A stretch of DNA of 64,000 bases from an uncultured Clostridia bacterium (GTDB lineage Bacteria; Bacillota; Limnochordia; DTU080; RSA5): positions 9,068 through 73,067 of the forward strand of contig CAYRIY010000004.1 of the NCBI GenBank assembly GCA_964424335.1, written 5' to 3'. The notes under the pieces are model-generated. The model had not been told where the DNA came from. It saw only the letters and a program-made list of their open reading frames with translations, and did not search any database. Below, piece by piece: positions 5,429-55,128 of the stretch; within the stretch, counting starts at the first letter, position 1; each line of letters begins with the position of its first letter. The position numbers were made by a program, and so were the translations under genes.

Positions 5429-5529
5429 CAATTCGATTTGGCAACAGGCGCGTGGAGTTAGTCCACGTCGGTTACTTTGTGAACAGCGATCGTGAGATCA
5501 TGGCTTTTTTAGAAAACGAGGTGGCGTGT

Positions 5530-6621: not shown

Positions 6622-6631
6622 GGGCGGCTAG

Positions 6632-8403: not shown

Positions 8404-8449
8404 ACGCCCTGGAGATTTGTGCGTTTTTGAAACTGGAAGAGGGGAATGA

Positions 8450-11045: not shown

Positions 11046-11078
11046 TTCCTCCCGAAAGGCGCGTGCGCTTTTTCGTGT

Positions 11079-12425: not shown

Positions 12426-12505
12426 CGACTTCTTCCCTTTCTCGGAGCTGCTCTTTAGGCCGTAGGGCCCGGGAAAGGCCCGCCGATCGGCGTGGCCGCC
12501 CCACG

Positions 12506-13897: not shown

Positions 13898-13969
13898 ACG
13901 ATCCGCCAGGTCGAGTCCAAACGAGGAGTTACGTCACATAAACGAGGGTAGCGGTCATCACAACACGGT

Positions 13970-14170
13970 CTAGCAGCGCATCGTGAGTATGAGTACAAAG
14001 ATGAGTCCCCCGAGGAGCACGACGTCGAACGGATTGGGAACGATCAGCACCTTGAGGAGTTCGATGCAGATCATTGCGACAATGACGACGAACGTCACGT
14101 CGAGGTTTCGCATTTTGCGCGACATGGATCGTTTCACCCTCACCGTGCAGGCTCGCTCGCCTGCTTTCAA
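13970..14170 (-). CDS. Possible small two-TM membrane protein (66 aa)
   Basis: Lies in the gap between two block genes on the same strand. It has hydrophobic segments VTFVVIVAMICIELLKVLIV and VVLLGGLIFVLILTM, and local GC content is lower. The coding evidence is weak. Confidence 0.3.
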   Translation of the reverse strand: MKAGERACTVRVKRSMSRKMRNLDVTFVVIVAMICIELLKVLIVPNPFDVVLLGGLIFVLILTMRC

Positions 14171-14268
14171 AGGAGTCGTGGCGTCAGTTCTTTCCCGCTA
14201 TCCTACGAGCCTCGGCGGAGGCTGGGAATAGTACTGAGTTCCCTAGTTCCCAGGTGGTAAGCGCATCC

Positions 14269-15363
14269 CTAGGAGTCTGTTGATTTCTTGCTCAAGTACC
14301 AAGCGTATTGAACGACACGGATGCGCGACGTCCGCCACGATTTCGTCAGGCGCGCTCTGGAGAAGAGCGCCCGTCCGGGTTGCCGGTTGACCTCGATGAT
14401 CCACAGTTTTCCTGTGCGGTCGAGGCCAAGATCGAGGCCGAGTTCGCCAAGGGTTGGGTGGGCGCTGGACATTTGGGCGGCGCATTTCAGCGCAAGGGCC
14501 CGAACCATTGCAGCGAGCGTCTTTGCTTTCGGGGCGCGGGGAAGACCGCGCACGAGGCGCTGCAGCGTCATTGCGGTTCCCCCTGCGTGCAGGTTGGAGA
14601 CAAACCCTCCGGGACGCCCGACACGCGCGCCGATCGCCGAGACGCGCCAGCGGCCTTCAATGTCACGTTGGACGATCGCACGTATGTCGACGGCAGACCG
14701 CCCTCGACGCATCAGGTCGAGGTCCTGCTGTACCAAGTATTCGTCAGGCGGTTGCCCGTCGACGGCAAATGCGACGAGCTGCGCTGCGTCTTTTAGGGAT
14801 CGCTTGACGGCAGCGCCTGATTCGGATCGTCTCGCCGCTTTCCAACCCGACTCGGATCGCACCGCCTTGACGATCCCCTTGCCCTGGCGGCCGCGCACCG
14901 GCTTGATGTAAAGCGCTCGGTGGGACTCGGCGATCCGCTCGATGGCATCGGCGCTCAGGGGTAAGGTTTCGGGGAGGTGAAGGGCGAGCTTGGGATCTTG
15001 AGCAAGGAGCGCATGGACCTCGAGTTTGTCCCCGAAGTCCGGGTTGAACACGGCAACCCCATATTCGCTCTCCAGGCGCCCAAGCGCGAGCCTGCACTTT
15101 TCGGCCTTCTCTTTGCCTAGGCCCCAAAGACGGTCGTGGACCACGTGAGGAAATCCTCGTTGAACGACTTTCCATCCCCCGTTCGTCGGGACGTACGCTT
15201 TGACGCGCCTGCGTTCCCAGTCGATGTCGAGGGGGGAGAAGACGTACCCTTCCATGTGGTGCCGTCTGGCGATCCGGATGAGTCCTCGCAGGTACGAGGT
15301 TTGCTCTCCAAACAGCCGCTTGTGAAACCGGCGCGCTGCAATTGCAAACACGGTGCGGGCCAT
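14269..15363 (-). CDS. YheC/YheD-family ATP-grasp protein (paralog 3, no N-terminal extension)
   Basis: VAVFNPDFGDKLEVH, LYIKPVRGRQGKG, AVDIRAIVQ, NLHAGGTA, ELGLDLGLDRTGKLWIIEVNRQP. Confidence 0.7.
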   Translation of the reverse strand: MARTVFAIAARRFHKRLFGEQTSYLRGLIRIARRHHMEGYVFSPLDIDWERRRVKAYVPTNGGWKVVQRGFPHVVHDRLWGLGKEKAEKCRLALGRLESEYGVAVFNPDFGDKLEVHALLAQDPKLALHLPETLPLSADAIERIAESHRALYIKPVRGRQGKGIVKAVRSESGWKAARRSESGAAVKRSLKDAAQLVAFAVDGQPPDEYLVQQDLDLMRRGRSAVDIRAIVQRDIEGRWRVSAIGARVGRPGGFVSNLHAGGTAMTLQRLVRGLPRAPKAKTLAAMVRALALKCAAQMSSAHPTLGELGLDLGLDRTGKLWIIEVNRQPGRALFSRARLTKSWRTSRIRVVQYAWYLSKKSTDS

Positions 15364-15381
15364 GGCAACCGCCTCCCTTAG

Positions 15382-16770
15382 TCAGATCTCCCAAGCCGCC
15401 TTGATGTCCCGATCCTCGTGCCACTCCTCGCCGGCCTCGATCATTTTGGTGAAGTAGGATAGCTCCGCTCGGTATTTGCGCCCTGTTTCGGTCCGAAGCA
15501 CGTTGTGGATCAGGCGCGGGTAAAGTGTGCGGAATCGCCCTTTTTTGGATAGATAAAACTCCTTGCTCGCCTGCGTCGAGGAGAGGTAGTTCCGATTCAA
15601 CCGCGGCCACTCGGCGGCCACCGTCTTGGCTAGGGCAAGCGTCGCCGTCGTGGCTTCAGGCGAGACGAGCCAGCTTGGCAGCACCCGGTACTCAAACCCG
15701 CCGTGTTCCTTGCGGCGAAAGTCGCCCGCACGGCCATACCGGCGCCTGCGTCTTTTGGCCCGGTGTCTTTGCTCGAGCAGCATGATCACAACGCCCAAAT
15801 AGCTGTCGAGGGCCCGCAGAAACGGGGTGGTCAGCGGCGCTCCACTGAAATGGATGTGGCCGCCGGTCGGGTACTTTCCCATGGGGTAGCTGCCGGCGAG
15901 CCACGAAACGCCCTTTGTCGGCAGGAGCTCCGCCGCTCGCCGCAATGCCGTCTCGATGTTTGCGACAAGCGTGAATGGGGAAGGGCTCGGATTTGGCCGC
16001 AGCTCCGCCAAGGGAAAGACCGACCCCCGGTTCGCGCGGCTTTGTCGGTCGTATCCCACGAGTCCGGAATGGGTCACATACCGGGACGCGTATACGATTT
16101 TCCCGCCCGCTTTGACCAGCGCAAACTCGGGATCGGCGCCAAGCGCCGCCTCGCTGGAAGGCTCCGGGGGCTCAACCCAGGATTCGGCCATGTCGGCAAT
16201 GCTCGCGCCATAAGCCCGGGCGAGGTCATCGTCCGCTGAAGGTTGAGCGTCGACTCGACCGACGTACCAGCGTCCGGATGGATGCACCATGACGTCGACC
16301 GACCCAAAGTGCAGTCCGAGGACGTATACGGCACGGCATGCCCCCTCGGCAATTCTTTGGTACTTCCAGCGCGAAATCGAGCGCATGGCTCCGCGGGCGT
16401 CATCGACCGCCAGGATGCGCAGGTCGGCCACGTGGACGCGCACAAGGGCGTACTCATCCCTCAATGGCGGCATGACCGGGCGCACAGCGTCGCGGGGCAG
16501 GCGCTCGGGATCCACGGGGATGCCATGCAGGTGAAGGAGGAGGGAGGTCTTCTCTGGTGAGTCGGCGATCCTTACCGCATTGACCGGATTGATCACGACG
16601 GCTGCCTTGGCAAGGGATGCGCTTTTTCCCCAACAAATGACCACGTCCGACTCGTTCGAAGACGCGCGGGCGCGCCGCTCGACGGTAAATCCCCGCTTGT
16701 CGAGCGCGTCGGCTACGGCCAAGACCGCGCTCGAGCGAACTTCTTTCGGGGCTAACAGTATCGCCTTCAT
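15382..16770 (-). CDS. Uncharacterised ~460-aa protein (paralog B of the 12506..13897 family)
   Basis: The N-terminus (VINPVNAVRIADSPEKTSLLLHLHGIPV; LVRVHVADLRILAV; AVYVLGLHFGSVDV) looks like an ATP-grasp N-terminal/central part. The C-terminal domain carries GADPEF, IVYASRY, GYDRQ, GGHIHFS, RRRRRYG, FEYRVLPSW. Confidence 0.6.
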   Translation of the reverse strand: MKAILLAPKEVRSSAVLAVADALDKRGFTVERRARASSNESDVVICWGKSASLAKAAVVINPVNAVRIADSPEKTSLLLHLHGIPVDPERLPRDAVRPVMPPLRDEYALVRVHVADLRILAVDDARGAMRSISRWKYQRIAEGACRAVYVLGLHFGSVDVMVHPSGRWYVGRVDAQPSADDDLARAYGASIADMAESWVEPPEPSSEAALGADPEFALVKAGGKIVYASRYVTHSGLVGYDRQSRANRGSVFPLAELRPNPSPSPFTLVANIETALRRAAELLPTKGVSWLAGSYPMGKYPTGGHIHFSGAPLTTPFLRALDSYLGVVIMLLEQRHRAKRRRRRYGRAGDFRRKEHGGFEYRVLPSWLVSPEATTATLALAKTVAAEWPRLNRNYLSSTQASKEFYLSKKGRFRTLYPRLIHNVLRTETGRKYRAELSYFTKMIEAGEEWHEDRDIKAAWEI

Positions 16771-16811
16771 AAGGACAAATCGCCATCCTGTAGTAGATCT
16801 TGCAAGATCGA

Positions 16812-17690
16812 TTACTGAACGTTCATGATTCGTCGGCGCATGGAGTCCATGACGCTTCCCGCAATGTCAGCGCCCGTGGCCGCTTCGACGTGTTGAAAGC
16901 CGGGGCAAACGTTGACGTCGATCACCAAAGGGCCCTCGGCCGTTTCGAGGATGTCGACAGCGGCAAAATCGGCTCCGACGGCGCGGGCCGCACGTACTGC
17001 CGCGTCCGCCGTCTCAATCTCTGCTTTGACAGGCATTGCTCGCGCGCCGAGCGACAGGTTGGCGCGCCATTCGCCCGGAGGAGGCGTCTTAGCCACTGCC
17101 GCAAGGACGCTTCCATCCAAGATGACGAGTCGCAGCTCCCGCTTTGCGCCGCTTACGAAGGACTGAACCAACATCGGCGATCCGTTCTCCTTTAGCAGGC
17201 GGAGCAGCTCTCGGGGCCCCGCTGCCTTGGAGACGAGAGCGCCTTTTCCGCCGATCAAGGGCTTGACGACGACCGGGTAGGAAACATGGCGCAGGTGGTC
17301 GACGGTGAGAGCGCTCATGATTCGGCTCTCCGGCTGAGGCACCCCGTGTTCAGACAGTGCGAGCGCGGCGAGCGCCTTGTCTCGGCCGTTTCGGACCGCC
17401 GCGGGTCCGTTTATCGTGGGCACGCCGACACGAGCGAGGACTTCGAGGACTCGAAGGCCCGCGAGGAGCGCGTCTTGGTCAATCCGCCCGATGGCGCCGA
17501 TCATGCTTGGATCTTGGCGGATCAGGCCCTTGGAGATTCCTTCGAACCGGGCGTGCTGCACGTCGAAGGCCCAGCGCATGGGATCGATCCGCACGAGGGA
17601 GATGCCCCGTGCCCGCGCGGCCCTGTGGAGCGCCTTCATCTCCCATGTCACGAAGTTGTCCCTGGTGATGACGGCCACGGCCCCTCTCAC
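16812..17690 (-). CDS. RimK-like ATP-grasp alpha-L-glutamate/peptide ligase
   Basis: A GTG start at 17690 overlaps the upstream glycosyltransferase stop (GTGA). The N-terminus VAVITRDNFVTWEMKALHRAARARGISLVRIDP parallels RimK MKIAILSRD...ILDP. Also present are PVVVKPLIGGKG, LVQSFV, ELRLVILDG, GADFAAVDIL. The longer ORF from 17786 is rejected as an antisense extension. Confidence 0.75.
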   Translation of the reverse strand: MRGAVAVITRDNFVTWEMKALHRAARARGISLVRIDPMRWAFDVQHARFEGISKGLIRQDPSMIGAIGRIDQDALLAGLRVLEVLARVGVPTINGPAAVRNGRDKALAALALSEHGVPQPESRIMSALTVDHLRHVSYPVVVKPLIGGKGALVSKAAGPRELLRLLKENGSPMLVQSFVSGAKRELRLVILDGSVLAAVAKTPPPGEWRANLSLGARAMPVKAEIETADAAVRAARAVGADFAAVDILETAEGPLVIDVNVCPGFQHVEAATGADIAGSVMDSMRRRIMNVQ

Positions 17691-18682
17691 GAAGGCCACG
17701 TCCTTATCGCATCGCGGTACACTTCGACCACCGCCTCGGCCATTTTCTCGATGGGAAACGTTCGGCAGGCGAACTCGCGACTCCAAGCGGCAAGGCGGCC
17801 GCGAAACGCCGCGTCTTGGGTGAGTCGGAGAATGTCCGTTCGGATGGTTTCCGATCGGGGCAACACACCGTCGTAACCGCTAAAGGAAGGGAACGCCTGG
17901 CCGTCGTAGCGATCGGGCGTGACCGGGCCCCCGTATTTGGCGCCCAAGACGAGGCCGATTGCGCCGCACGCGAGCCCTTCGCGAATCGCTCGGCCGGTGC
18001 CGCAGACGATGTGGCTCTCGGCCAACAGTTTTGAGACGTCGTCCACCCATCCGAGGGCGGTCAAACGAGGTCCGACCGGACGGTCGTTTGATGCGACCGC
18101 GAGGTGGGCGTGGGGAATGGCTTCGGTCGCTCTGATCAGTTCGTTTAAGCCGCTTCTCTTGGTTTCGTCAACCCTGCCGACATAGGCGATGCGAAGGCTG
18201 GGGCCCTTTGCGCCCGGAGAGAACCGCTCGGTGTCAACTCCGTTTTGGATGATCACCGAGGCGATGGAGTGCTTCATTAGGTCCTGCGCGACATTGGGCC
18301 CCACGGCAATGCACCGATCGACCTTGGCGACGTCCGGAAATCGACCCGCCACGCCCAAACCGTGACATGTGATCACGCACGGAACGCCGTGCGTCTCGCG
18401 CAGGCGAAGGAGACACGGGACGGCGACTGACGAATGGCCGTGCGCAATGTCGGGGGCGAAGGCCTCGGCCATTTTGAAGAACTGGCTCGATTTCACCGCA
18501 TGCCGACACGGAATCGCGTGTTGGTGCAACATGTCGGCGCAGGCCTTGACTGCGAGGGGCAATGATCGTCCGAGCGCAATCACGCAGACGTCGTGGCCCA
18601 TGTTGCCAAGAGCCCTGGCAAGCTCGACGAGGTGCGTCGTCTGGCCGCTTTGATGGAACTTAGCCGTGAGCAAAATGCGCAA
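17687..18682 (-). CDS. GT-B fold glycosyltransferase (family 1 / GT4-like)
   Basis: The N-terminus MRILLTAKFHQSGQTTHLVELARALGNMGHDVCVIA is typical of GT4 enzymes. The C-terminal half has the E-x7-E-like region (GRVDETKRSGLNELIRA ... GLACGAIGLV). Confidence 0.7.
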   Translation of the reverse strand: MRILLTAKFHQSGQTTHLVELARALGNMGHDVCVIALGRSLPLAVKACADMLHQHAIPCRHAVKSSQFFKMAEAFAPDIAHGHSSVAVPCLLRLRETHGVPCVITCHGLGVAGRFPDVAKVDRCIAVGPNVAQDLMKHSIASVIIQNGVDTERFSPGAKGPSLRIAYVGRVDETKRSGLNELIRATEAIPHAHLAVASNDRPVGPRLTALGWVDDVSKLLAESHIVCGTGRAIREGLACGAIGLVLGAKYGGPVTPDRYDGQAFPSFSGYDGVLPRSETIRTDILRLTQDAAFRGRLAAWSREFACRTFPIEKMAEAVVEVYRDAIRTWPS

Positions 18683-18724
18683 AGCCGCTCGAGTCCCCCT
18701 TCATCGAAACGCCGACGATGAGAT

Positions 18725-19888
18725 TCATCCTATGGCAATGGGGCGCGCTCCGTTCTCCTTTGGTCTCCACGCGTATTTGAACAAGCGGCGAGCGGCGAGA
18801 GTACGGATTTCATCTTCGTCAAAGGGAAAGGGCTTGGCGTTCATCTCGAGGATCGCAAGGCGCCCGTCCGCTGTCGGAGCGATGTCTGCCGAGAACTCGA
18901 AAAACTCTTCTCCGCGGCTTTCTTCGATGGCTAAAGCCGCACGGCAGACGAGCGATTCGACCGCGCCGCGGTCGATGCCGCACATATCGGCGACCTCGGC
19001 GAAGGGAACAATATGGCCGCCGCGAACCGTGTGAGTCGACACGTGACCGGGAGGCGCCGCGCGGCCTGTTACGCCCGTCAGGCTCCAGCCGGCCTCGGTA
19101 CGTTGGACGAGCGCGCGCAGGTCGACTCGGCAGCCGTCGATCGACGGGAGATCGACGCCCTCTTGAGCAATGTACGGCGTGGAACGGACGAGGTCGCCTA
19201 AGAGCTGAGAAAGCGTTCGGCGTCCGCACAAGGTCTGTAAGGGGGGATCCGGAGTTGCCCGGTTCGACGTGATCAAATAATTTCCGCGGCCTTGAGCCGT
19301 ACCTGGTTCGATTCTGACGATGCCTCGCCCAAGGCTGCCGTCCTTGGGCTTGAGGTAGACGACGCCCCACGATCGCAAGGCGCTCATCGCGTCGTCCACG
19401 TCTTGAACAACCGCAAATCGGGGGGTCGCAACTTGCTTCGCGCCCAATGCGGATAGCGCCTCGTCTTTGGCCAAAAAGCCGGGATTAAAAAGGAGGCGAT
19501 TTATTCGAATTTGATCTAGGAGCCGCTGCATGGTCGGGCGCCTTTCGAGCGATCGGCGAGCCAGTCGGTTGTAGATGGCGTTTGGCAGCGGCGCCGTCAT
19601 CCGCTTCCACTCGGATCCGTCGAAATGCCATCCCGCCACCGAGTTTTCGCGCACGTTTATGCCGTTGGGGGTGAAAAACAAGGTGCGTCCCCACGTGGGG
19701 CCGAGGAGGCCTAGGTGCGCGTACGTGTGCTCAGGTGGGCGCCCAAGCTCAAACTCCCGTTCCGATAGTGGATCGATCAATACGCCAAGCGCGCGCTCAC
19801 AGTAAGTCACGGGAAAATCAACCTCCACCAAGCATTGATATGCCGGCGGGGCCCACCGAGGTGACCTGGCTTTTTTTAGTCCAGTCAT
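18725..19888 (-). CDS. YheC/YheD-family ATP-grasp protein (paralog 4)
   Basis: LLFNPGFLAKD, VYLKPKDGSLGRG, RVDLRALVQ, GVTGRAAPPG, EFSADIAPTADGRLAILEMNAKP. Confidence 0.7.
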   Translation of the reverse strand: MTGLKKARSPRWAPPAYQCLVEVDFPVTYCERALGVLIDPLSEREFELGRPPEHTYAHLGLLGPTWGRTLFFTPNGINVRENSVAGWHFDGSEWKRMTAPLPNAIYNRLARRSLERRPTMQRLLDQIRINRLLFNPGFLAKDEALSALGAKQVATPRFAVVQDVDDAMSALRSWGVVYLKPKDGSLGRGIVRIEPGTAQGRGNYLITSNRATPDPPLQTLCGRRTLSQLLGDLVRSTPYIAQEGVDLPSIDGCRVDLRALVQRTEAGWSLTGVTGRAAPPGHVSTHTVRGGHIVPFAEVADMCGIDRGAVESLVCRAALAIEESRGEEFFEFSADIAPTADGRLAILEMNAKPFPFDEDEIRTLAARRLFKYAWRPKENGARPIAIG

Positions 19889-19909
19889 TCGATTGTTATC
19901 TACAGTGCT

Positions 19910-21031
19910 TCATACGACGCTCTCGGCAACGCCTTGTGCGACGCCGCTCTTTTTGTACGCAAGGTGTCTTGCAAACTCGGCCGGAGAGCGATCCGCCATG
20001 CTTGCAGCCTCCGTCTCGCCGGCCCGGTGAAAGGAGATCCGTCCGGTCCGGGAGTTTGCCTCCAGGAGCCAGCATCTGTAGTCTTTATCGATTGCAAAAT
20101 CGATGCCGAGTTCTGCTACGAGGCGGGTCGTCTTGCTCGTCGCCTCCGCGGTTTCGATGGCGAGGCGCTTGATGCTCTCGATGATCTCTGCGACTTGATG
20201 ATCATCCGCGCCGGTTTCGGCCAAGATTTCGTGCAATTTGCGTGCGCTTCCCCCGGCGTGGATGTTTGTGACTTTGCTCCGTCGACCGCCAAGCCGTGCG
20301 ACGACTCCGGTGACGCGCCATTCTCCGTCGCCATGACGCTGAACGAGCGCCCGGATGTCGAAAGGCCTGCCGTCGTACTTTAGGACGTCGATCGCCATCT
20401 GGACGATGCGCGGCCTTCCGCCGCCGCAGCGTGCGCTCACGGCGCCGATCGTGCGGACCATGCCCGATCGGACGCCGCGCCCTCCATGAATCCGGTACCG
20501 ATACCCTCCGGGCACGCGCTTGACCCACGCCACGCCCTTTCCCTGACCGCCGTTGATCGGTTTTACGTATACTTCACCGTACTGTTTGAGCATCGAGTAG
20601 AGCGTCGTTTTCGTCAGCACGCGGGTTGGGGGGAGGATCGGGGCGAGGGTCGGGTTTTTCCGCCATACCTTGTACATGCCCCATTTGCCCGTGAGGCGGG
20701 TGTTGAACATCGGTATCTTCATGCGCGCAAAACGACGTCGGACCGAGGGAATGCCGGCGAGGTCCGCTCTGCCTTTGGGCGACACGCGGTCGAAGACGGC
20801 GTCGGGAAATCGGTAGATTCCTTTTCGCCATCGCCCGTTCACCATTGTCCAGCCTCGAATCCGCCTGCGCGACCAGAGGACGTCGCGCGGAGAGAAGATG
20901 AACACTTCGACCCCGATGGTCCTTGCTTCCTTGATCAACCTGCGAAAAAACGTGGTCTGCTCCTGATAGGGACGGGTCTTGGATGAACGCCTGGCACAAA
21001 GGACACCTAAATAGACGTCGGGTTGTGACAA
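19910..21031 (-). CDS. YheC/YheD-family ATP-grasp protein (paralog 5), first gene of the block
   Basis: A TTG start at 21031 is preceded by AAGGGGAG; the ORF as tracked from 21223 is probably over-extended. Signatures: YLGVL, MFNTRLTGKW, VYVKPINGGQGKG, PFDIRALVQ, NIHAGGSA, ELGIDFAIDKDYRCWLLEANSR. Confidence 0.65.
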   Translation of the reverse strand: MSQPDVYLGVLCARRSSKTRPYQEQTTFFRRLIKEARTIGVEVFIFSPRDVLWSRRRIRGWTMVNGRWRKGIYRFPDAVFDRVSPKGRADLAGIPSVRRRFARMKIPMFNTRLTGKWGMYKVWRKNPTLAPILPPTRVLTKTTLYSMLKQYGEVYVKPINGGQGKGVAWVKRVPGGYRYRIHGGRGVRSGMVRTIGAVSARCGGGRPRIVQMAIDVLKYDGRPFDIRALVQRHGDGEWRVTGVVARLGGRRSKVTNIHAGGSARKLHEILAETGADDHQVAEIIESIKRLAIETAEATSKTTRLVAELGIDFAIDKDYRCWLLEANSRTGRISFHRAGETEAASMADRSPAEFARHLAYKKSGVAQGVAESVV

Positions 21032-21247
21032 ACTGGAGCTCCCCTTGAGGCGGGCAGCGCCCTGGCGACACGAAACCTTTTTCGAAAACACGCGGCGAGG
21101 GCAGGGCGCGGCGAGCACGCGTTTTGGCTGTGGCAGGAGCAATGTACGCTTGAGCGAAGGCTGTTGGATACAACCCGGCGCTCCTATTTTCGAGAAGTTC
21201 GACTTCCGAACAATGGGGCGCAAACAACGTTAATGTTCGTCTTTTGC

Positions 21248-21368: not shown

Positions 21369-22763
21369 GTGGAGCGCAACGTGTTCTCCTCCATCAGTCC
21401 ACTCGACCATCGCTATTACGTCAGCTCGCCCGAGCTGTTTGACCGTTTGTCACAATACTTGTCCGAAGAAGCCACGATTGCATATCAGGCCCGGGTCGAG
21501 GCCGCGCTCGTCAAGGCGCTGGTCCGCAAGGGGATTTGTCCTCAGTCTGTGAGCGACGAGGTGGAGGCGGCGATCAGAGCCGTTCGTCCCGACGAGGTCT
21601 ACGAGGAAGAGCGCAAGACTCACCACAACATCCGAGCGCTCGTCAATGTCATCCGCTCCAAGGTCTCAGACGAGGCCAAGCCTTTCGTTCACTTCACCGC
21701 CACGTCCATGGACATCACGGACACAGCCCGATCGCTTCAGTACCGCGACGTGACCGAGCACGTACTGCTCCCGCAGCTCAAAGAGCTGATGAACGTGTTG
21801 ATCGCGCTCGCAAGACGAGAGGCGGACCGCGTCCAAGTGGGCCGGACACACGGTCAACACGCCGTGCCGATCACCTTTGGCTTTGCCGTGGCGGAGTACG
21901 TGAGCCGCCTTGGCGGTCGCATCGAGCTGATCGCACGGAGCGCGGCGGCGCTAAGAGGCAAGATGGCCGGGGCGGTCGGAGCGTACAACGCCTCGCGGCT
22001 CTTTTTTGACGACCCGGAGGCGTTTGAGGCCGATGTCCTCGGAGAACTTGGAATGGAAGCCGCCGATCACGCGACGCAGATCGTCGAACCCGAGTACGTC
22101 GCGGATTTCATCCATGCGATCGTCAGCGCATTTGGCGTTCTCGCCAACTTCGCAGATGACATCCGCCACTTGCAGCGCACCGAGATCGGAGAAGTGGGCG
22201 AAGCGTTCGACGTCCACCAAGTCGGATCGTCGACGATGCCTCACAAGCGAAATCCTTGGAACTACGAGCACGTGAAGAGTTTGTGGAAGACGTTCGCACC
22301 GAGGATGCAGACGATCTACCTCGATCAGATCTCCGAGCACCAGCGGGACCTTACCAATTCGGCGTCGGCCAGATTCACGGCCGAGCTGATTGCGGGCTTC
22401 GCGGCGGCCGTCGACCGGTTGACCCGGGTGACCAAAAAACTCGTGGTCGACCATGGTCGTATGGAGCAAAACTTCCAAAGCACCCAAGGGTACGTCATCG
22501 CGGAGCCGCTCTACATTCTCCTCGCCGCGTGCGGCCATCCCGATGCACACGAAGCGGTGCGCAAACTCACCCTCAAGTCAGAGCAAAACGAAGGCTCCCT
22601 CTACGACTTGGCGAAAGCGGACCCGGAGTTGCGGCCGTACGTAGAGCGTTTCACGCCCGAACAGGCGCGGGTGCTGCAGGACCCCAGAGAGTACGTGGGA
22701 ATCGCGGCGAGTAAAGCGCGGAAAGTCTGCGACCGGTGGGAAGCCCGGATGGCAAGCATCTAG
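21369..22763 (+). CDS. purB: Adenylosuccinate lyase
   Basis: SPLDHRY (compare E. coli PurB SPVDGRY) and the fumarase/lyase signature region GSSTMPHKRNP. Confidence 0.9.
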   Translation: MERNVFSSISPLDHRYYVSSPELFDRLSQYLSEEATIAYQARVEAALVKALVRKGICPQSVSDEVEAAIRAVRPDEVYEEERKTHHNIRALVNVIRSKVSDEAKPFVHFTATSMDITDTARSLQYRDVTEHVLLPQLKELMNVLIALARREADRVQVGRTHGQHAVPITFGFAVAEYVSRLGGRIELIARSAAALRGKMAGAVGAYNASRLFFDDPEAFEADVLGELGMEAADHATQIVEPEYVADFIHAIVSAFGVLANFADDIRHLQRTEIGEVGEAFDVHQVGSSTMPHKRNPWNYEHVKSLWKTFAPRMQTIYLDQISEHQRDLTNSASARFTAELIAGFAAAVDRLTRVTKKLVVDHGRMEQNFQSTQGYVIAEPLYILLAACGHPDAHEAVRKLTLKSEQNEGSLYDLAKADPELRPYVERFTPEQARVLQDPREYVGIAASKARKVCDRWEARMASI

Positions 22764-22823
22764 GCCTCTTACATGGCGCGAAGTTCAGGCGCCCACAGCG
22801 AACAACAAAGGAGCGCTGCCAGC

Positions 22824-23075
22824 ATGACGTATCGAGCGAAAGTTTACGTGACGTTGAAAGAAGGCGTGCTCGACCCGCAGGGAAACGCGGTTCGACAAGG
22901 ATTGAACTCGTTGGGTCACTCGGTGCAGGACGTTCGGGTCGGACGGTTTATCGTGCTCACCCTAGAGGCCGAGGATGAAGCGTCGGCCAAGGCCCAGGTC
23001 GAGGAGATGTGCCGCCGCCTCCTGGCAAACCCTGTAATCGAAGATTACACGTTCGATACGCCCGAGGAGGTGTAG
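22824..23075 (+). CDS. purS: FGAM synthase PurS subunit
   Basis: The ATG at 22824 is preceded by AAAGGAG. MTYRAKVYVTLKEGVLDPQG...VGRFIVLTLEA matches PurS. Confidence 0.85.
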   Translation: MTYRAKVYVTLKEGVLDPQGNAVRQGLNSLGHSVQDVRVGRFIVLTLEAEDEASAKAQVEEMCRRLLANPVIEDYTFDTPEEV

Positions 23076-23081
23076 CGCGCC

Positions 23082-23798
23082 TTGCGATTTGCGGTTTTGG
23101 TTTTCCCCGGTTCAAATTGCGATTCGGACTGTTTCAACACGCTCAAAGAGTTTGAGGGCGCCGAAGTCGAGTACGTGTGGCATCAGGAGACCGACATCGA
23201 CCGCTTTGACGCCGTAATTTTGCCCGGTGGATTTTCGTACGGCGACTATTTGAGACCGGGGGCGATTGCGCGCTTCTCACCGGTCATGGGCGCCGTAGCG
23301 AAGTACGCCGATCGGGGCGGGCTGGTCCTTGGAATTTGCAATGGCTTTCAGATTTTGTGCGAAGCCGGGCTGCTTCCTGGGGCGTTGGTTCGCAATGCGT
23401 CGCGCCGGTTTCACTGCGAGATGCGCCCGATACGGGTCGAGCGAAACGACACGCCGTTTACCAATGCTTGTGCGGATGGCGAAACGCTCCTCATGCCCAT
23501 CGCTCACGCGGAAGGGCGGTACTACGCAGACCCGGAGACGCTTGCTCGCTTGGAGGCCAATCGGCAAGTCATCTTTCGCTACGTCGACGAAAACGGGGAG
23601 GCGACGCCTGCCGGAAATCCGAACGGGTCGCTCGCAAACATCGCCGGCATTTCGAGCGAGCGCGGCAATGTGGTCGGACTGATGCCTCATCCCGAACGAA
23701 ACGCGGACACGATTTTAGGCGACGGGAGCGGCCGCAAAGTCCTCTTGTCGCTCGCAAGGGCGGTTTCTGGAGTTGAGAGGGGGCAGTTTGTCCGATGA
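23082..23798 (+). CDS. purQ: FGAM synthase glutaminase subunit
   Basis: [14 protein letters not shown]...GGFSYGDY...GICNGFQ...HPER is a class-I GATase. Confidence 0.9.
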
Positions 23799-26059
23799 GC
23801 TACCCGGACGGCGCTTGGAGAGAGATGGGCCTCAAGGACAGCGAGTTTGAGCTCATTATTGAGGCGCTCGGCAGGCGGCCCAACTGGACTGAGCTCGGCA
23901 TGTACGCCGTGCTTTGGTCCGAACACTGCGCGTACAAACACTCGCGGCCGCTCTTTCACCTTTTCCCGACGGAAGGGGAACAAATTCTTCAAGGCGTCGG
24001 CGAGAACGCCGGCGTCGTAGACATCGGAGACGGCCTTGCCGTCACGTTCAAGGTGGAGTCCCACAACCACCCGTCGGCCATCGAGCCGTACCAAGGGGCT
24101 GCGACCGGCGTCGGCGGCATTTTGCGCGACATTTTCACGATGGGCGCTCGGCCCATCGCGGTCCTCAATTCGCTCAGGTTTGGACCTCTAGACAGCGATA
24201 GGGTGCGTTATCTCTTTGAGGGCGTCGTCTCCGGCATCGCCGGCTACGGCAACGCGGTGGGTGTGCCGACGGTCGGCGGAGAGATCGCATTCGACGATGC
24301 GTACGCCGGCAACCCCCTCGTCAATGCGATGGCCGTCGGGCTCGTCCCTCACAAACACGTGCAGACGGCCGCGGCAAAAGGCGTAGGCAACCCTGTGATG
24401 GTCGTGGGCGCACGGACCGGTCGGGACGGCATCCACGGCGCGAGCTTCGCCTCGGCGGAACTCACCGAGGAGTCCGAGTCCAAGCGGCCCTCCGTCCAGG
24501 TGGGAGATCCCTTCACGGAAAAGCTCTTGATCGAGGCGTGCATGGAGTTAATCGAGTCCGGCGTCGTCGTCGGCATTCAGGACATGGGCGCCGCCGGCCT
24601 TACGAGCTCGTCGGCGGAGATGGCGGCGCGGGCCGGTTCAGGCATCGAGATGGACATCTTGAAAGTGCCAAGGCGCGAGCCCGGCATGAGCGCGTACGAG
24701 ATCATGCTCTCCGAGTCGCAAGAGCGCATGCTGGTCGTTCCCAAGAAAGGCGCCGAGGACGAGGTAAAGCGGATCTTCGCGAAATGGGGCCTCGAGGCGG
24801 TCGTGGTCGGAAGAGTGACCGATGACGGGATGCTGAGGATCAAAGAGGGCGATCAAGTGGTCGCGGAGGTCCCGGCAAAGTCCTTGTCGACGGATGGCGC
24901 TCCGAGCTATCGCCCGGAGGAAAGGCGACCCGCCTACATCGATGAACTGGTCAACGCTCCCATTCCCGACGACATTGAAGGAGACGCGGGTCAGATCCTC
25001 AAGACGCTGCTCTCCGATCCGAACATCGCAAACAAAGCGTGGGTTTACCGACAGTTCGACCACATGGTGCAGACCCGCACTGCGGTGCCGCCCGGCGTCG
25101 CAGACGCAGCGGTGCTGCGGCTGCGAGAGAGCGGGAAAGGGCTCGCCATGAGCATCGACTGCAACGCGCTCCACTGCTATGTCGATCCCAAGACGGGCGC
25201 AGCGGCGGCGGTCGCCGAAGCGGCGCGAAATCTCGTGTGCACCGGCGCTCGGCCTCTTGCTTTGACCGATGGGATGAACTTCGGCAATCCGGAAAAGCCC
25301 GAAGTGTACTGGCAGCTTCATCGATCCGTCGAAGGGATTGCGATGGCGGCGCGCGCGCTCGGCACGCCGGTGACGGGCGGCAACGTGAGCCTTTACAACG
25401 AGTCGGAAGGGAGCGCGATTCCTCCGACGCCCATCATCGGTATGGTCGGCTTGCTCGAACGGGTCGAGGCGCGCCTTACGCAAGGGTTCAAAGAGCCGGG
25501 AGACATCGTTTACCTGCTTGGCGAACACTGCGGCGAGCTTGGCGGCAGCCGCTATTTGAAAGCGCTCCACGACGTCATCAAAGGTCCTCTCCCGCCGCTT
25601 GACCTCGAGCTCGAGCGGCGCGTCCAAGAGGCCTGTCTTGCGGCGGCCGGCAAGGGGTATTTGAAGTCCGCTCACGACTGCTCCGAAGGCGGGCTTGCCG
25701 TGGCGCTTGCGGAGTCTTGCCTCACGGGACGATTGGGCGTGCGCGTGCAGTGGGAGCCGGCGGCGGGTCTTCGTTTGGATGCTCAGCTCTTTGGGGAAGG
25801 GTATAGCCGCATCGTGGTCACGGTAGCGCCTTCCGACGTCGAGGCGTTCGAGTCCCTTTTGGCGGACGCAGGCGTTCCCTGGAGCCGCATCGGTGTCGTC
25901 ACCGCCCTCGAGGACGGTTACGCGCTTGAGGTTGGCGGTGTGCACATCAAGGAAGGTCTGGCCGACCTTGCAGACTGTTGGTACGGCAGCCTACCCCGGG
26001 CGATGGATGGCGCCGAGGCCGCGAGCGGCTTTGTGCCTCCGGCGCTTGCAAGAGCGTAG
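23795..26059 (+). CDS. purL: FGAM synthase large subunit
   Basis: 754 aa with a PurM-like duplicated fold ([21 protein letters not shown]). Confidence 0.9.
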
Positions 26060-26126
26060 TGTAGACCGGCGCCTCTTTCACGTTTGATGAGGAGGCGCGC
26101 TTTTCGTTGCAAAGGGAGGGCCTACC

Positions 26127-27557
26127 ATGTGCGGCATATTTGGGATGTTTAGTCGTGGCCCGGTCGACGCGGCCGGATTGACGTACCTTGGACTTTACGC
26201 CCTGCAGCACCGAGGCCAGGAGAGCGCCGGCATCGTGGTCTCCGACACGCAGCGCATGCGGCTCCACAAGGCGATGGGGCTCGTTCCCAACGTCTTTGAC
26301 GACGCCGCTTTGGAATCAATGCCGGGCCGGATCAGCATCGGTCACGTCCGCTATTCGACGACCGGCGCCCCGCACATCGCGAACGCGCAGCCGCTCCTTG
26401 CTTTTTCGCGCCACGGGCAATTGGCGCTCGCCCACAACGGCAACCTGACGAATACCAACCTGCTCCGACATGAGCTTCTCGCGTCGGGATCGGCCTTTCA
26501 GACGACGACGGACAGCGAGGTAATCATCAATCTCATCGCGGCCGGAAACCACGACGAACCGCTCGAAGATGCCGTGCTCCGGACGGTGCGGCGGATCTCC
26601 GGAGGGTTTGCCATCGTGTTGATGACGAACGACGCGCTGATCGGCATCCGTGATCCCCTTGGCATCCGGCCGCTTTCGATCGGACGCATGGGGGACGATT
26701 GGTTTTTCTCCTCCGAGTCGTGCGCCTTCGACATCGTCGGCGCAGATCTCGTACGAGACGTGCGGCCCGGCGAGATGGCGATCATCGACGAGCATGGATT
26801 GCGGTCTGTTCAGTTTGCTCCCGCGAGCAAAGACGCGTTTTGCATTTTCGAATTCATCTACTTTGCGAGGCCCGACAGCGTGATCGACGGAAAGAGCGTC
26901 CATGAGGTGCGCAAGGAGATCGGCCGACGCCTTGCAGACCAGCGCCGGATCGACGCTGATCTCGTCGTGCCCGCGCCCGACTCCGCCATGTCGGCGGCCC
27001 TCGGTTACGCGGAGCGATCGGGCATTCCATTTGACATTGGACTTGCGAAAAACCGGTATGTGGGGCGCACATTCATTCAACCGACGCCGTCGATGCGTCG
27101 GACAGGCGTGCGCATCAAGCTTAATCCGATTTCCGAAACGGTGCGGGGTAAGCGCGTCATCCTCGTCGATGACTCGATCGTGCGAGGAACGACGAGCCAA
27201 AAGACGATCCAGCTCCTGCGCGAGGCCGGCGCCGCCAAGGTTCACATGGCCGTCGCGTCGCCTCCGTTTTCCCATCCGTGCCTTTATGGAATCGACGTGC
27301 CCACCGGCGACGAACTGATCGCATACCACCGTTCCGTCGATGAGGTCTGTCGACTGATCGGCGCGGACTCGCTCGATTACCTCAATTTCAATTCGCTGTA
27401 CGAAGCGGTCGGCATTTCGGGCGATCGACTGTGCACGGCATGTTTTGGCGGCGGATATCCGACTGAGATCGAACCTGAGCATTTTGACGTCCCGGATCTC
27501 CTCGAGGACAAGAGAGGACGCGCCGTATCGGCGCCCATGGACGGAAGTAACCGGTAG
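26127..27557 (+). CDS. purF: Amidophosphoribosyltransferase
   Basis: N-terminal MCGIFG (Ntn Cys) and a PRTase domain (VILVDDSIVRGTT). Confidence 0.9.
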   Translation: MCGIFGMFSRGPVDAAGLTYLGLYALQHRGQESAGIVVSDTQRMRLHKAMGLVPNVFDDAALESMPGRISIGHVRYSTTGAPHIANAQPLLAFSRHGQLALAHNGNLTNTNLLRHELLASGSAFQTTTDSEVIINLIAAGNHDEPLEDAVLRTVRRISGGFAIVLMTNDALIGIRDPLGIRPLSIGRMGDDWFFSSESCAFDIVGADLVRDVRPGEMAIIDEHGLRSVQFAPASKDAFCIFEFIYFARPDSVIDGKSVHEVRKEIGRRLADQRRIDADLVVPAPDSAMSAALGYAERSGIPFDIGLAKNRYVGRTFIQPTPSMRRTGVRIKLNPISETVRGKRVILVDDSIVRGTTSQKTIQLLREAGAAKVHMAVASPPFSHPCLYGIDVPTGDELIAYHRSVDEVCRLIGADSLDYLNFNSLYEAVGISGDRLCTACFGGGYPTEIEPEHFDVPDLLEDKRGRAVSAPMDGSNR

Positions 27558-27594
27558 ATGTTCAACGACTATTTGCAAAGGAATCGGTGCGCAT

Positions 27595-28629
27595 ATGAAC
27601 GACCAGACCAGCTATAAGGCTTCAGGCGTCGACATCGAGGCCGGATACGAAGCGGTCCGCCGTATCCAAGAGCACACGAAATCTACGTTTCGCCCCGAAG
27701 TGCTGCGGGGCATCGGGTCATTTGGCAGCTTTTTCGCGCTCGATACGGCTAAGTACAAAGAGCCCGTGCTCGTCTCCGGCGCGGACGGCGTCGGAACGAA
27801 GTTGAAGATCGCATTCATGATGGACAAGCACGACACCATCGGCATCGACGCAGTCGCCTACTGCGTGAACGACATCGTCTGCCAAGGTGCCGAACCCCTC
27901 TTCTTCCTGGATTACCTCGCACTCGGGAAGCTGGACCCCATGATGGTCGAAGCGATCGTATCCGGTGTGGCAAAGGGGTGCCGCGAAGCCGGCTGCTCTT
28001 TGGTAGGAGGTGAGACGGCGGAAATGCCGGGCTTTTACGCGACTGGCGAGTACGACTTGGCGGGCTTTGCCGTGGGCGTGGTCGAGCGCGACGCCGTGAT
28101 CGACGGCAGCCGCGTGCGCGCAGGCGACGTCGTGGTAGGCATCGCCTCGACCGGACTGCAAAGCAGCGGCTTCTCGCTCGTGCGCCACATCTGCTTCGAG
28201 CGGGCACGGCTCAGCGTTGAGACGCATGTCGAGGCGCTCGGGCGGACGCTCGGCGAAGAGCTCTTGGAGCCGACGGGAATTTATGTGCCCGCAATTTTGA
28301 GCCTCATTTCCAAGTTTGACGTGAAAGGCATTGCCAACATTTCCGGCGGCGGATTGCCGGAAAACCTGCCCCGATCGGTCGGACAAGGGCTCGAGATCGT
28401 CGTGCGAAAAGGTTCGTGGGAGACGCCTCCGGTCTTTCCCTGGCTCCAATCGCTCGGCAACGTCGACGAAGCGGAGATGTTCAAGACGTTCAACATGGGC
28501 GTCGGCATGGCTGTCATCGTCTCACAAGGAGACGTGGATGCGGTCATTGCACAGCTTGCTTCGCTGGGCTGGCGATCATGGCCGATCGGTGAGATTCGGG
28601 CGGGCGAGGGAGGCGTCGTGTTCTCGTGA
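27595..28629 (+). CDS. purM: AIR synthetase
   Basis: Start at MNDQTSYKASGVDIEAGYEAV. Also DAVAYCVNDIVCQGAEPLFFLDY. Confidence 0.9.
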   Translation: MNDQTSYKASGVDIEAGYEAVRRIQEHTKSTFRPEVLRGIGSFGSFFALDTAKYKEPVLVSGADGVGTKLKIAFMMDKHDTIGIDAVAYCVNDIVCQGAEPLFFLDYLALGKLDPMMVEAIVSGVAKGCREAGCSLVGGETAEMPGFYATGEYDLAGFAVGVVERDAVIDGSRVRAGDVVVGIASTGLQSSGFSLVRHICFERARLSVETHVEALGRTLGEELLEPTGIYVPAILSLISKFDVKGIANISGGGLPENLPRSVGQGLEIVVRKGSWETPPVFPWLQSLGNVDEAEMFKTFNMGVGMAVIVSQGDVDAVIAQLASLGWRSWPIGEIRAGEGGVVFS

Positions 28630-29285
28630 GCGCTTCAGAGGAGGTCATTCGCCTCGGGCGAAAAGCGGACGCAAGCGATCCGCTCAAAGTCGGCGTCCTC
28701 GTCTCGGGCAGAGGGTCCAACATGGAAGCGATCATCGACAGCGCAAAGTTGGGCGAAATCCCGGTTTCCGTCGAAATCGTCCTCTCCGATCGGGAGGATG
28801 CGCCCGCGCTCGAGAAAGCGGCAAGGCGAGGCATCCCGGCGCGAGGGTTTCGCTGCCCGCCGCCGGGACCGGAGCGCGATGCGTTCTACGATCGAGTGCT
28901 CGAGGCGCTGCGCTCGCACGGAGTCGAAATGATCGCGCTTGCAGGGTACATGCGCATCTTACCCGCCGCCGTCCTCGAGGCATACCCTCATCGGATCCTC
29001 AACATCCACCCCTCGTTGCTCCCGTCATTTCCGGGCTTGCATCCGCATCGCCAAGCGCTCGAGCACGGCGTCAAGGTATCGGGTTGCACCGTGCACTTAG
29101 TCGACGGCGGGGTCGATACGGGGCCCATCATTTTGCAAGAGAGCGTGCCGGTGCTCGAGACCGACGACGAAGAGAGCTTGGCCGCGCGGATTCTTGCCGT
29201 TGAGCACAGGCTTTACCCCAAGGCGCTCGGCCGCTTGGCGTCGGGACGGCTGGCATTGTCCGGGCGCCGGGTGATCGAAGCGTAA
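28626..29285 (+). CDS. purN: GAR formyltransferase
   Basis: VGVLVSGRGSNMEAII...NIHPSLLP...VSGCTVHLVD formyltransferase motifs. Confidence 0.85.
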   Translation: MSASEEVIRLGRKADASDPLKVGVLVSGRGSNMEAIIDSAKLGEIPVSVEIVLSDREDAPALEKAARRGIPARGFRCPPPGPERDAFYDRVLEALRSHGVEMIALAGYMRILPAAVLEAYPHRILNIHPSLLPSFPGLHPHRQALEHGVKVSGCTVHLVDGGVDTGPIILQESVPVLETDDEESLAARILAVEHRLYPKALGRLASGRLALSGRRVIEA

Positions 29286-29315
29286 CTCTGTTACTTTGGA
29301 GGCAGGCGTTTCATC

Positions 29316-29915
29316 TTGATCAAGCGAGCAATCTTGAGCGTGTTCGACAAGACGGGCATCACCGAGTTTGCGAAGGCGCTCGCCCGACACGGCGTCGAGA
29401 TCATCTCGACCGGCGGAACGTATCGCACCCTCGAAGAGGCGGGCGTCCCCGTTACATACATCAGCGACGTAACAGGCTTTCCCGAGATTCTGGGCGGCCG
29501 CGTGAAGACGCTCCATCCAAGAATTCACGGGGGCATTCTCGCGCGCAGGCAGATTCCTTCGGACCAAAGCGACCTCGAAAAGATCGGAGCGCAAGGGATC
29601 GATCTCGTCGCCGTAAACCTTTATCCGTTCGAAGAGACGATAAGAAAACCCGGGGTGAGCGTGTCCGAGGTCCTGGAGAATATCGACATCGGGGGCCCGA
29701 CGATGGTGCGGGCTGCCGCCAAAAACTATCCGGATGTAGTCGTCGTGGTTCGGCCTGATCGTTACCCGGAAATTGTCGAGCGACTCGACCAAGGCAATCC
29801 GATCGATTTGGCGACTCGAGAGGTGCTCGCCAAAGAGGCGTTTGCCCATACGGCCGCGTACGACGCGGCGATCGCCCGGTGGTTTTCAAGGCGCGGGGAA
29901 GGAGAGGCGACTTGA
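29316..29915 (+). CDS. purH: IMP cyclohydrolase domain of PurH only (MGS-like, ~199 aa); the AICAR formyltransferase domain is absent
   Basis: [15 protein letters not shown]...[20 protein letters not shown]...[10 protein letters not shown] aligns with PurH residues ~1-200. The stop at 29913-15 is followed two nt later by the purD start. Confidence 0.75.
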
Positions 29916-29916
29916 C

Positions 29917-31197
29917 GTGAAGGTCCTTGTAGTAGGAAGTGGAGGGCGTGAGCACGCCCTTGCCTGGAAGCTCGCGCAAAGCCCAACCGTCGCCAAAGTG
30001 ATCTGCCAAAGCGGCAATCCGGGCATGCGCTCCGTGGCCGAGTGTCTTCCTGAGCCGGAGGGCGGGATCGAAGAGATCGCAGCGTGGGCAGCGCAGGAGC
30101 GCGTCGACCTTGCGGTCGTGGGCCCGGAAGCATACCTGGACCTCGGCCTCGTGGACGCCTTCGAACGTCGGGGCGTAAAGGCCGTGGGACCCACGAGGAG
30201 CGCGGCCATGCTGGAAAGCAGCAAGAGCTTTGCCAAGGAATTGATGGCCAAAGCACAGATTCCGACCGCGCAGTTTGTTGTGTGCGACGCGCCCGAAGCG
30301 GCCCGCAAGGCGGCGCGGCGTTTCGGCGCTCCGGTCGTCGTGAAAGCCGAGGGACTTGCCGCAGGCAAGGGCGTCACCGTCGCGTTCACCCTCGAGGAGG
30401 CCGATCGAGCGATCAGCCAAGCGATGGAGGAGCGCATTTTCGGGGACGCGGGGCGGCGCGTCGTCATCGAAGAGTTTTTGCGCGGCGAAGAGGCGAGTGT
30501 CCTCGCGTTCGTCGACGGCGAGCGCGTGATGCCGATGCCCGCCGCTCAGGACCACAAGGCCATCGGGGAGGGGGACACGGGTCCCAACACCGGGGGCATG
30601 GGCGCTTATTCGCCTGCGCCGATCATCACGCCCGACCTCGAAGCGCGCGTGGTGCGTGAGATTTTGGAACCTGTCGTGCAGGCGATGGCCAGCGAGGGCC
30701 GCCCTTATCGCGGCGTGCTTTACGCAGGCCTCATGGTCACGAACGATGGCCCAAAGGTGGTCGAGTTCAACTGCCGGTTCGGAGACCCGGAGGCCCAGGC
30801 CGTTTTGCCGCGCCTAAGGTCCGATCTGGTGGAGCCGCTCATGGCCACTGTCGAAGGGCGGCTTGACGAAGTGACGCTGGAATGGGACGAGCGGGCCTGC
30901 GTCTGTGTCGTGCTCGCCTCCGGAGGGTACCCGTCCCGCTACGAAACAGGGTTTCCCATCGAAGGCCTCGCTGAAGCCGAAGCGATCGAGGACGTCATGG
31001 TGTTTCACGCAGGCACGCGCGCCGAGGGCGATGCGATCCTCACCGACGGCGGGCGCGTGCTCGGCGTGACGGCGCTCGGCGAGACGCTCGCCCAGGCGAC
31101 CGAAACGGCCTACTTGGCGGCTGACAAGATTCGTTTCCAAGACAAGTACTTGCGGCGAGACATCGCATGGCGAGCCCTGGAACGGTTAAACCAATAA
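29917..31197 (+). CDS. purD: GAR synthetase (ATP-grasp)
   Basis: The GTG at 29917 is preceded by GAAGGAGAG. VKVLVVGSGGREHALAWKL is the classic PurD N-terminus. Confidence 0.9.
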   Translation: MKVLVVGSGGREHALAWKLAQSPTVAKVICQSGNPGMRSVAECLPEPEGGIEEIAAWAAQERVDLAVVGPEAYLDLGLVDAFERRGVKAVGPTRSAAMLESSKSFAKELMAKAQIPTAQFVVCDAPEAARKAARRFGAPVVVKAEGLAAGKGVTVAFTLEEADRAISQAMEERIFGDAGRRVVIEEFLRGEEASVLAFVDGERVMPMPAAQDHKAIGEGDTGPNTGGMGAYSPAPIITPDLEARVVREILEPVVQAMASEGRPYRGVLYAGLMVTNDGPKVVEFNCRFGDPEAQAVLPRLRSDLVEPLMATVEGRLDEVTLEWDERACVCVVLASGGYPSRYETGFPIEGLAEAEAIEDVMVFHAGTRAEGDAILTDGGRVLGVTALGETLAQATETAYLAADKIRFQDKYLRRDIAWRALERLNQ

Positions 31198-49715: not shown

Positions 49716-49719
49716 GCGT

Positions 49720-53112: not shown

Positions 53113-53115
53113 TAC

Positions 53116-55083: not shown

Positions 55084-55128
55084 CACACAGAAACTCTAAG
55101 CCCCAATCAGAAAGGCTGATCAAATTCG

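Follow-up and report, generated by a model that had tools for sequence, protein, structure and literature searches.

The short "purH" gene in this stretch of DNA (the window; 64,000 nucleotides analysed in full) is a real and conserved gene for a stand-alone IMP cyclohydrolase, purJ, and represents a known minority arrangement of the purine pathway, neither a new system nor an error. IMP cyclohydrolase (IMPCH) converts FAICAR to IMP and water and thereby completes de novo purine synthesis; in the preceding step, AICAR and 10-formyl-THF give FAICAR through AICAR formyltransferase (AICARFT). The explanation that we favour, with a probability of about 0.8, is that purJ would have arisen by loss in place of the AICARFT-coding part of an ordinary purH, and that FAICAR would come from a purV-type enzyme (a stand-alone AICARFT) encoded elsewhere in the genome.

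Extent, domain content and catalytic residues of PurJ

The gene lies in a pur operon on the forward strand, the relevant features of which are as follows.

21369-22763, + strand: purB, upstream part of the same pur operon
22773-23075, + strand: purS, upstream part of the same pur operon
23082-23798, + strand: purQ, upstream part of the same pur operon
23795-26059, + strand: purL, upstream part of the same pur operon
26127-27557, + strand: purF, upstream part of the same pur operon
about 27595-28629, + strand: purM, upstream part of the same pur operon
28626-29285, + strand: purN (GAR formyltransferase, 219 aa), directly 5' of purJ (ORF, Pfam)
29298-29302, + strand: GGAGG, likely purJ ribosome-binding site, 13 nt 5' of the TTG (read from the sequence)
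29316-29915, + strand: purJ (stand-alone IMP cyclohydrolase, 199 aa; homologue of the PurH N-terminal MGS-like domain) (ORF, Pfam, NCBIfam, alignments)
29499-29507, + strand: codons of R62-V63-K64 in the GGRVKTLHP motif (human ATIC Arg64 and Lys66; alignment to 1p4r)
29622-29624, + strand: codon of Y103 in the NLYPF motif (human ATIC Tyr104; alignment to 1p4r)
29685-29687, + strand: codon of D124 in the IDIGG motif (human ATIC Asp125; alignment to 1p4r)
29721-29723, + strand: codon of K136 in the AAAKN motif (human ATIC Lys137; alignment to 1p4r)
29880-29915, + strand: non-conserved C-terminal tail of purJ ([12 protein letters not shown] + stop), at the junction
29917-31197, + strand: purD (GAR synthetase, 426 aa; GARS N, A and C domains, complete) (ORF, Pfam)

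As read from the sequence, purJ opens with TTG and ends with TGA at 29913-29915. We prefer the TTG start since the conserved N-terminal strand KRAILSV lines up with PurH structures from their residue 1-2 onward. Some gene calls begin 8 codons downstream, giving 191-aa versions of the protein (P0002 and P0003). The GTG start of purD at 29917 follows one base after the purJ TGA and in another frame, and AGGAG at 29900-29904, within the 3' end of purJ, is the purD ribosome-binding site. The original prediction had reported these coordinates, the 199-aa length, the stop and the purD start with its own ribosome-binding site accurately, as judged by the ORF and the sequence itself. Translation of purD is probably coupled to that of purJ. 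Read-through of purJ into purD, or a fusion of the two, was ruled out because the genes occupy different reading frames.

Pfam matches of PurJ comprised the MGS domain (residues 14-129) and, of the 311 positions of AICARFT_IMPCHas (PF01808), no more than the first 60. Against the NCBIfam PurH equivalogs (NF002049 and TIGR00355), profile positions 4-196 of 510 were matched, with scores under the cut-offs (286 vs 402 bits and 281 vs 528 bits). PurJ thus lacks what defines a bifunctional PurH, namely both domains and a full-length match above cut-off. Homology to the N-terminal, MGS-like IMPCH domain of PurH extended over its whole length: residues 7-194 of E. coli K-12 PurH were 56% identical (E 4e-57), and the N-domains of solved full-length PurH/ATIC proteins (PDB 9ou7, 3zzm, 1p4r and 1g8m) matched with E values of 5e-64 to 6e-50, the PDB matches spanning residues 1-197 (190-197 residues of the solved N-domains). 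When aligned with a syntenic full-length PurH, the PurJ C-terminus fell within the interdomain linker. The polypeptide ends at a genuine stop, with no frameshift and no AICARFT domain, and the claim made earlier that only the IMPCH domain is encoded, with neither room nor frame for AICARFT, was borne out by Pfam, by NCBIfam and by the position of the stop one base before purD.

The catalytic residues of IMPCH are retained. In the alignment to human ATIC (PDB 1p4r), K64, Y103, D124 and K136 of PurJ correspond to Lys66, Tyr104, Asp125 and Lys137, and R62 and T65 in the GGRVKTLHP loop correspond to R64 and T67. Lys66, Tyr104, Asp125 and Lys137 are important for the cyclohydrolase, and the separately expressed halves of avian PurH were each active (Brown et al. 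2011, Biol Direct 6:63, PMC3261824); moreover, the IMPCH active site is made by one monomer, the domain comprising residues 1-197 (PMC9525906). Given this conservation, together with the single-monomer active site and the active avian halves, PurJ is very probably an active FAICAR cyclohydrolase.

One solved homologue that also stands alone is ForH of formycin biosynthesis (PDB 6nko; 216 aa), a protein of roughly 200 aa in the same fold family that matched PurJ with E 1e-36. This raises the idea that the product of the window gene might act as a ForH-like cyclohydrolase in the synthesis of a C-nucleoside secondary metabolite of the formycin type, which we regard as having a negligible chance of being correct. 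The similarity to ForH is much lower than that to most solved full-length PurH/ATIC N-domains (E 5e-64 to 3e-45); ForH belongs to a secondary-metabolite context, whereas purJ sits between purN and purD in the primary, core pur operon, in the purH slot, with no biosynthetic gene cluster around it.

Conservation of the short form and its probable origin from full-length purH

Four independent assemblies, all from related genomes, have a gene of 198-201 aa in the same slot between purN and purD, at 62-78% identity to PurJ. These syntenic relatives came from ENA (L082, 78%), from Logan and ENA (L086/L087, 65%) and from two NCBI assemblies (L083/L084, 62%), and share the order purN, short gene, purD, NFACT, a TPR or unassigned gene and a P-type ATPase, continuing beyond the ATPase with YicC, RemA, gmk, rpoZ and priA. 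The purJ-bearing relatives include assemblies GCA_041686855.1 and GCA_041685055.1. The short gene is as conserved as its neighbours: identities between the window and three relatives were 78, 62 and 66% for purJ, 74, 59 and 58% for purN, and 75, 71 and 68% for purD. The dN/dS of purJ against relatives was about 0.09-0.29, with dS saturated.

The original prediction had offered recent truncation as one account of the short gene. This is rejected, as a gene of about 200 aa stands in the same slot of four independent assemblies, is conserved like purN and purD, and keeps its catalytic residues. The accompanying caveat that a misassembly or frameshift might have to be excluded did not hold up either. 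Frameshifted assemblies do give false half-PurH proteins (P0137 and similar), and a frameshift or a collapsed deletion in a normal purH is conceivable in general terms, but here a single base separates the purJ stop from the purD start, leaving nothing to restore. An equivalent junction, in which the stop overlaps the start of purD, was present in four independent assemblies (ENA, NCBI and Logan), and copies of purJ that were 98-99% identical occurred in JGI and ENA metagenomes. An artefact is effectively refuted already.

Short forms were also found well beyond this clade. Among the 120 best database relatives of PurJ, 116 were 191-213 aa long, and several carried the NCBI name "IMP cyclohydrolase". 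Loci of GTDB species representatives included the short form in 21 of 80 cases, counted where the stop fell 0-10 codons from the N-domain end and the flanking ±10 kb held no AICARFT, among them the cultured Selenomonas sputigena ATCC 33150, Succiniclasticum ruminis DSM 9236 and an Anaerovibrio sp. A search of the representative library returned cluster representatives of very mixed length, many of them fragments, and a proportion of short forms is therefore not derivable from that library. In a neighbour-joining tree of the 200-aa N-domain, built without support values and without the syntenic full-length relatives, the short forms fell into at least four separate groups (the window clade, Negativicutes, Nitrospirota and Prevotella), a distribution that suggests that they originated repeatedly.

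By PurL search, the host clade is an uncultured Bacillota lineage whose closest relatives with names (Calderihabitans and Desulfotomaculia) reach only ~62% identity; GC content is 61% in the window and 60-68% in the relatives, and Spo0A is present. More distant relatives carry a full-length purH in the purN-purD slot, of 520 aa in L218 (ENA ERZ27254879 k141_95311, from the same ENA sample as the short-form locus L082), 520 aa in L219 (GCA_017577385.1) and 511 aa in L221 (GCA_017656135.1), the last within a classical purE-BCSQLFMNHD operon. The wider gene order of L218 and L219 is that of the window: an amidoligase/ATP-grasp cluster, purB-purL, purF, purM, purN, the gene in question, purD, NFACT and TPR. 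Their PurL identities to the window were 69% and 65%, respectively, vs 75% for the L083 assembly, and the PurH of L219 scored 706 bits over positions 4-510, above the PurH equivalog cut-off. Because the same gene order accompanies a full-length purH in these more distant relatives, we infer that the short gene arose by loss in place of the AICARFT-coding part of purH.

The junctions are consistent with such a loss. In the protein alignment, the four PurJ end 7-12 residues past the HTAAYD..I..F helix and before the AICARFT motif LRYGENPHQ, and their C-terminal tails are not homologous to one another. At the DNA level, each of the four genomes with purJ has a stop codon that overlaps or directly adjoins the start of purD (TGAcGTG, TTGA, ATGA and GTGA), and the purD Shine-Dalgarno sequence lies inside the purJ tail; in the sister genomes with full-length purH, a spacer of 85-142 nt separates purH from purD. 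The simplest reading of these junctions would be one deletion in the ancestor of the clade, a scenario based on synteny and on the ranking of PurL identities. An ordinary purH would have lost its AICARFT-coding 3' part (roughly 1 kb) in the common ancestor of these uncultured, high-GC Bacillota, the same deletion removing the purH-purD spacer. The open frame would then have read across the purD ribosome-binding site and ended where purD begins. In this view purJ is transcribed together with purN and purD and is probably coupled to them in translation, and the tail at 29880-29915 would be the junction that the loss left behind. What is new here is this before-and-after picture of domain loss by synteny, and the clade is an unusually clear natural example of the origin of purJ, with a purH of 511-520 aa before and a purJ of 199 aa after.

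Source of FAICAR

All nine pur genes of the window are intact, and purC, purE and purK were not found within its 64 kb. Absence of these three genes from the window, and of purM from the operon of one relative, could be read as pathway decay, in which AICARFT would have been lost without replacement, external purines would be needed and purJ would be a relic. We consider this very unlikely. Dispersed pur genes are common, intact pur genes that were 58-84% identical were recovered in relatives, and purJ itself has intact catalytic residues and a dN/dS well below 1. Since the rest of the pathway is maintained and constrained, FAICAR must be supplied.

Searches for the partner enzyme near purJ were negative. 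The C-terminal half of E. coli PurH gave no significant match anywhere in the 64-kb window (best E 0.87), and tblastn with purV of Bacteroides finegoldii (a query scoring 761 bits to NF005492, the stand-alone AICARFT family) gave no match in the window at E<=1. Enzymes of the PurP type or the PurO type (PF07826) were absent from Pfam scans of the 53 predicted window proteins, and neither purV nor another AICAR formyltransferase occurred within ±10 kb of purJ in the relatives. Proteins matching NF005492 as purV are about 390 aa long and 42-79% identical between the phyla sampled; one encoded in the window would have been detected. A search for AICARFT-only proteins with the C-half of the closest full-length GTDB PurH (L009), sensitive only to a purV closely related to that half, returned full-length proteins and assembly fragments only.

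Several candidates were examined and rejected. Five proteins matching PF01808 only (P0137, P0147, P0150, P0153 and P0227) start inside the IMPCH domain or the linker of PurH; the contig that carries P0137 has low coverage, and many of its genes are fragmented. Another candidate, L102, came from a scan for the purV motif FKHVSPAG, back-translated into GC-rich DNA, in JGI metagenome sample Ga0180219; this is a sister sample of Ga0180215, which holds a 99% identical purJ. L102 has 70% GC and lies among genes for OmpA, RecQ and a DUF3516 helicase, and was judged foreign to the clade and rejected as its purV.

Stand-alone IMPCH (purJ) and stand-alone AICARFT (purV) were named by Cruz et al. (2019, Genome Biol Evol 11:1235, PMC6486802), who found bacterial purJ 50 times in 1,266 genomes, 44 with purV and 4 with purH. 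In that survey, the commonest neighbours of purJ were purD and purN, and purV and purJ were mostly non-adjacent. Both spacings occurred among our loci: a short purJ and a purV lie 17 kb apart on the 1.77-Mb replicon NC_022111.1 of Prevotella sp. oral taxon 299, and purJ is directly 5' of purV in metagenome loci L118, L154 and L162. From these precedents and the upkeep of the rest of the pathway, supply of AICARFT activity by a separate gene elsewhere in the genome would be the best-supported reading. PurJ would then cyclise FAICAR made by a separately encoded purV-type enzyme (NF005492, about 390 aa), the gene for which would lie at a distance from purJ of >29 kb on the upstream side or >34 kb on the downstream side.

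The same survey bears on a different possibility, that a second, full-length bifunctional purH elsewhere does both steps and purJ is redundant. The four purJ-bearing genomes with purH give this some precedent, but they are the minority pattern among the 50 (PMC6486802). A superfluous remnant ought to decay, whereas purJ lies in the slot that purH held ancestrally, and its constraint across the clade matches that on purN and purD; we therefore consider a second purH unlikely.

A purV-type partner must also be weighed against AICAR formylation by an enzyme unrelated to PurH, either a bacterial counterpart of PurP or an unknown transformylase, with PurJ cyclising the product and no purV acquired. 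Archaeoglobus provides the precedent, with an IMPCH-only PurH2 and PurP, the authors stating that PurH2 does the cyclohydrolase step (PMC3261824). The failure to find purV for this clade in the window, within ±10 kb in relatives or by the C-half search also points this way, as does a large ATP-grasp gene cluster adjoining the pur operon (9672-21223; YheC/D, RimK and COOH-NH2 ligase, i.e. amidoligase, types by Pfam). The cluster was rejected as a PurP analogue: its genes belong to YheC/D, RimK and amidoligase families with no PurP Pfam match, and sister genomes that keep a full-length purH have it beside the operon too, so that it does not track the loss of AICARFT. Furthermore, the folate-dependent PurN and Fmt are kept, and PurP has been found only in Archaea (PMC6486802). 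Formylation by a non-PurH enzyme is thus distinctly improbable; if true, it would be the first bacterial route combining purJ with a non-PurH enzyme. Were the partner any enzyme other than purV, a new bacterial AICAR formyltransferase would be indicated by this locus, which the evidence makes unlikely.

Relation to described stand-alone cyclohydrolases

Judged by sequence and context, the window gene is purJ as Cruz et al. use the name and corresponds to PurH2 of Brown et al., an arrangement that has already been described. Like the window gene, the purJ of Cruz et al. is ~200 aa long, consists of the PurH N-domain only and typically adjoins purN and purD; it replaces purH in genomes that lack purH. 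The original prediction that split PurH is uncommon in bacteria was fair, as purV/purJ or purV/purO stand in place of purH in about 5% of bacterial genomes (PMC6486802). The taxa in Table 3 of that paper are Prevotellaceae, Fervidobacteriaceae, Thermodesulfobacteria, Desulfovibrionales and Desulfobacterales, whereas the window lineage is an uncultured, high-GC, spore-forming Bacillota clade in which, in contrast to the purJ of that survey, an origin in place from purH is visible by synteny.

The main value of the finding lies in annotation and metabolic reconstruction. Labelling purJ as bifunctional PurH would wrongly credit the organism with an AICAR formyltransferase, and labelling it as a pseudogene would wrongly break its purine pathway. 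PurJ has the same motifs and catalytic residues as the N-domain of bifunctional PurH/ATIC but lacks the ~310-aa AICARFT domain, and there is thus no intramolecular proximity of the two active sites. Archaeoglobus PurH2 is likewise an isolated IMPCH that keeps Lys66, Tyr104, Asp125 and Lys137; unlike PurJ, it is archaeal, is paired with the formate-dependent PurP (PMC3261824) and lies outside a pur operon, archaeal purJ in general having been found outside pur context (PMC6486802). PurO (PF07826), the archaeal-type IMP cyclohydrolase that also occurs in bacteria, is unrelated to PurJ in fold and sequence and is absent from the window, but it catalyses the same reaction and is also paired with purV in bacteria, as in the purN-purV-purO operon of metagenome locus L144.

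Possible mobility of purV and the other replacement of purH

Genes of the purV type, which encode a stand-alone AICAR formyltransferase (AICARFT), were found on plasmids of Priestia (L093), Streptomyces (L094) and Mycobacterium (L095), whose genera as a rule encode purH on the chromosome, and in all three cases the surrounding genes were unrelated. This plasmid-borne occurrence suggests that purV is mobile; if so, gain of purV preceding the loss of the PurH domain would be plausible. The other known bacterial replacement of purH, purV together with purO (an unrelated archaeal-type IMP cyclohydrolase), was represented by a high-GC metagenome contig:

L144 (Ga0207872_100068), 93-2824: compact purN-purV-purO operon

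Doubtful PurH-related records

Several proteins (P0137, P0147, P0150, P0153 and P0227; locus L085) had the appearance of AICARFT-only proteins, being 339-413 aa long and matching PF01808 alone. They were rejected as such enzymes since their sequences begin within the IMP cyclohydrolase (IMPCH) domain of PurH or in the linker. Counts of 'split PurH' can be misled by such proteins. The source of P0137 is a low-coverage ENA contig on which many pur genes are split. In the three best cluster representatives, P0366, P0367 and P0368 (400, 319 and 279 aa, respectively), two separate stretches each matched the 199-aa query, such that these proteins appear to carry two tandem IMPCH domains; the doubled match may be a real duplication or an assembly artefact. 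In a neighbour-joining tree of the N-domain, the short purJ (stand-alone IMPCH gene) of L004, a contig labelled Segatella copri (CAVBQX010000001.1), grouped tightly within Phascolarctobacterium sequences and apart from the purJ of Prevotella sp. 299. A binning or labelling error is the probable cause for this contig.

Gene content and surroundings of the pyr and pur operons

5452-9034: pyr operon with pyrR, pyrB, pyrC, pyrF, carA, pyrK, pyrD and pyrE
21369-31197: pur operon
9672-21223, minus strand: nine-gene ATP-grasp/ligase cluster, divergent from the pur operon

In the pyr operon, pyrK directly follows carA, and carB (large subunit, ~1070 aa) was absent both from this operon and from the whole window. 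Missing from the pur operon were purC, purE and purK. In L218 and L221, relatives with full-length purH, the purB-purS interval holds purC, and L083, a relative with a short purJ, has no purM in the purF-purN interval. Dispersal of pur genes is under way in this clade. The neighbouring cluster encodes five YheC/D-like ATP-grasp proteins, two phiEco32-like COOH-NH2 ligases, one RimK-like ATP-grasp protein and one GT4 glycosyltransferase, and its pur-adjacent position is kept in L083, L218, L219 and L220. The cluster probably serves to modify a peptide or poly-amino acid, with a possible link to the spore coat.

Spo0A-type regulator and a kinase-containing gene region

45500-46294: Spo0A-type response regulator (Spo0A_C domain), flanked by rsmB and rlmN
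48421-56683: FhaA-like, FHA, PP2C phosphatase, FtsW/RodA, PBP and PASTA Ser/Thr kinase genes

The Spo0A-type regulator marks the host as a member of an endospore-forming Bacillota lineage, despite a GC content of 61%. The gene order at 48421-56683 is actinobacterial in style, in a host that is a Spo0A-bearing Bacillota; these genes are followed by rsgA and rpe, like those of the prpC-prkC-cpgA-rpe region of Bacillus.
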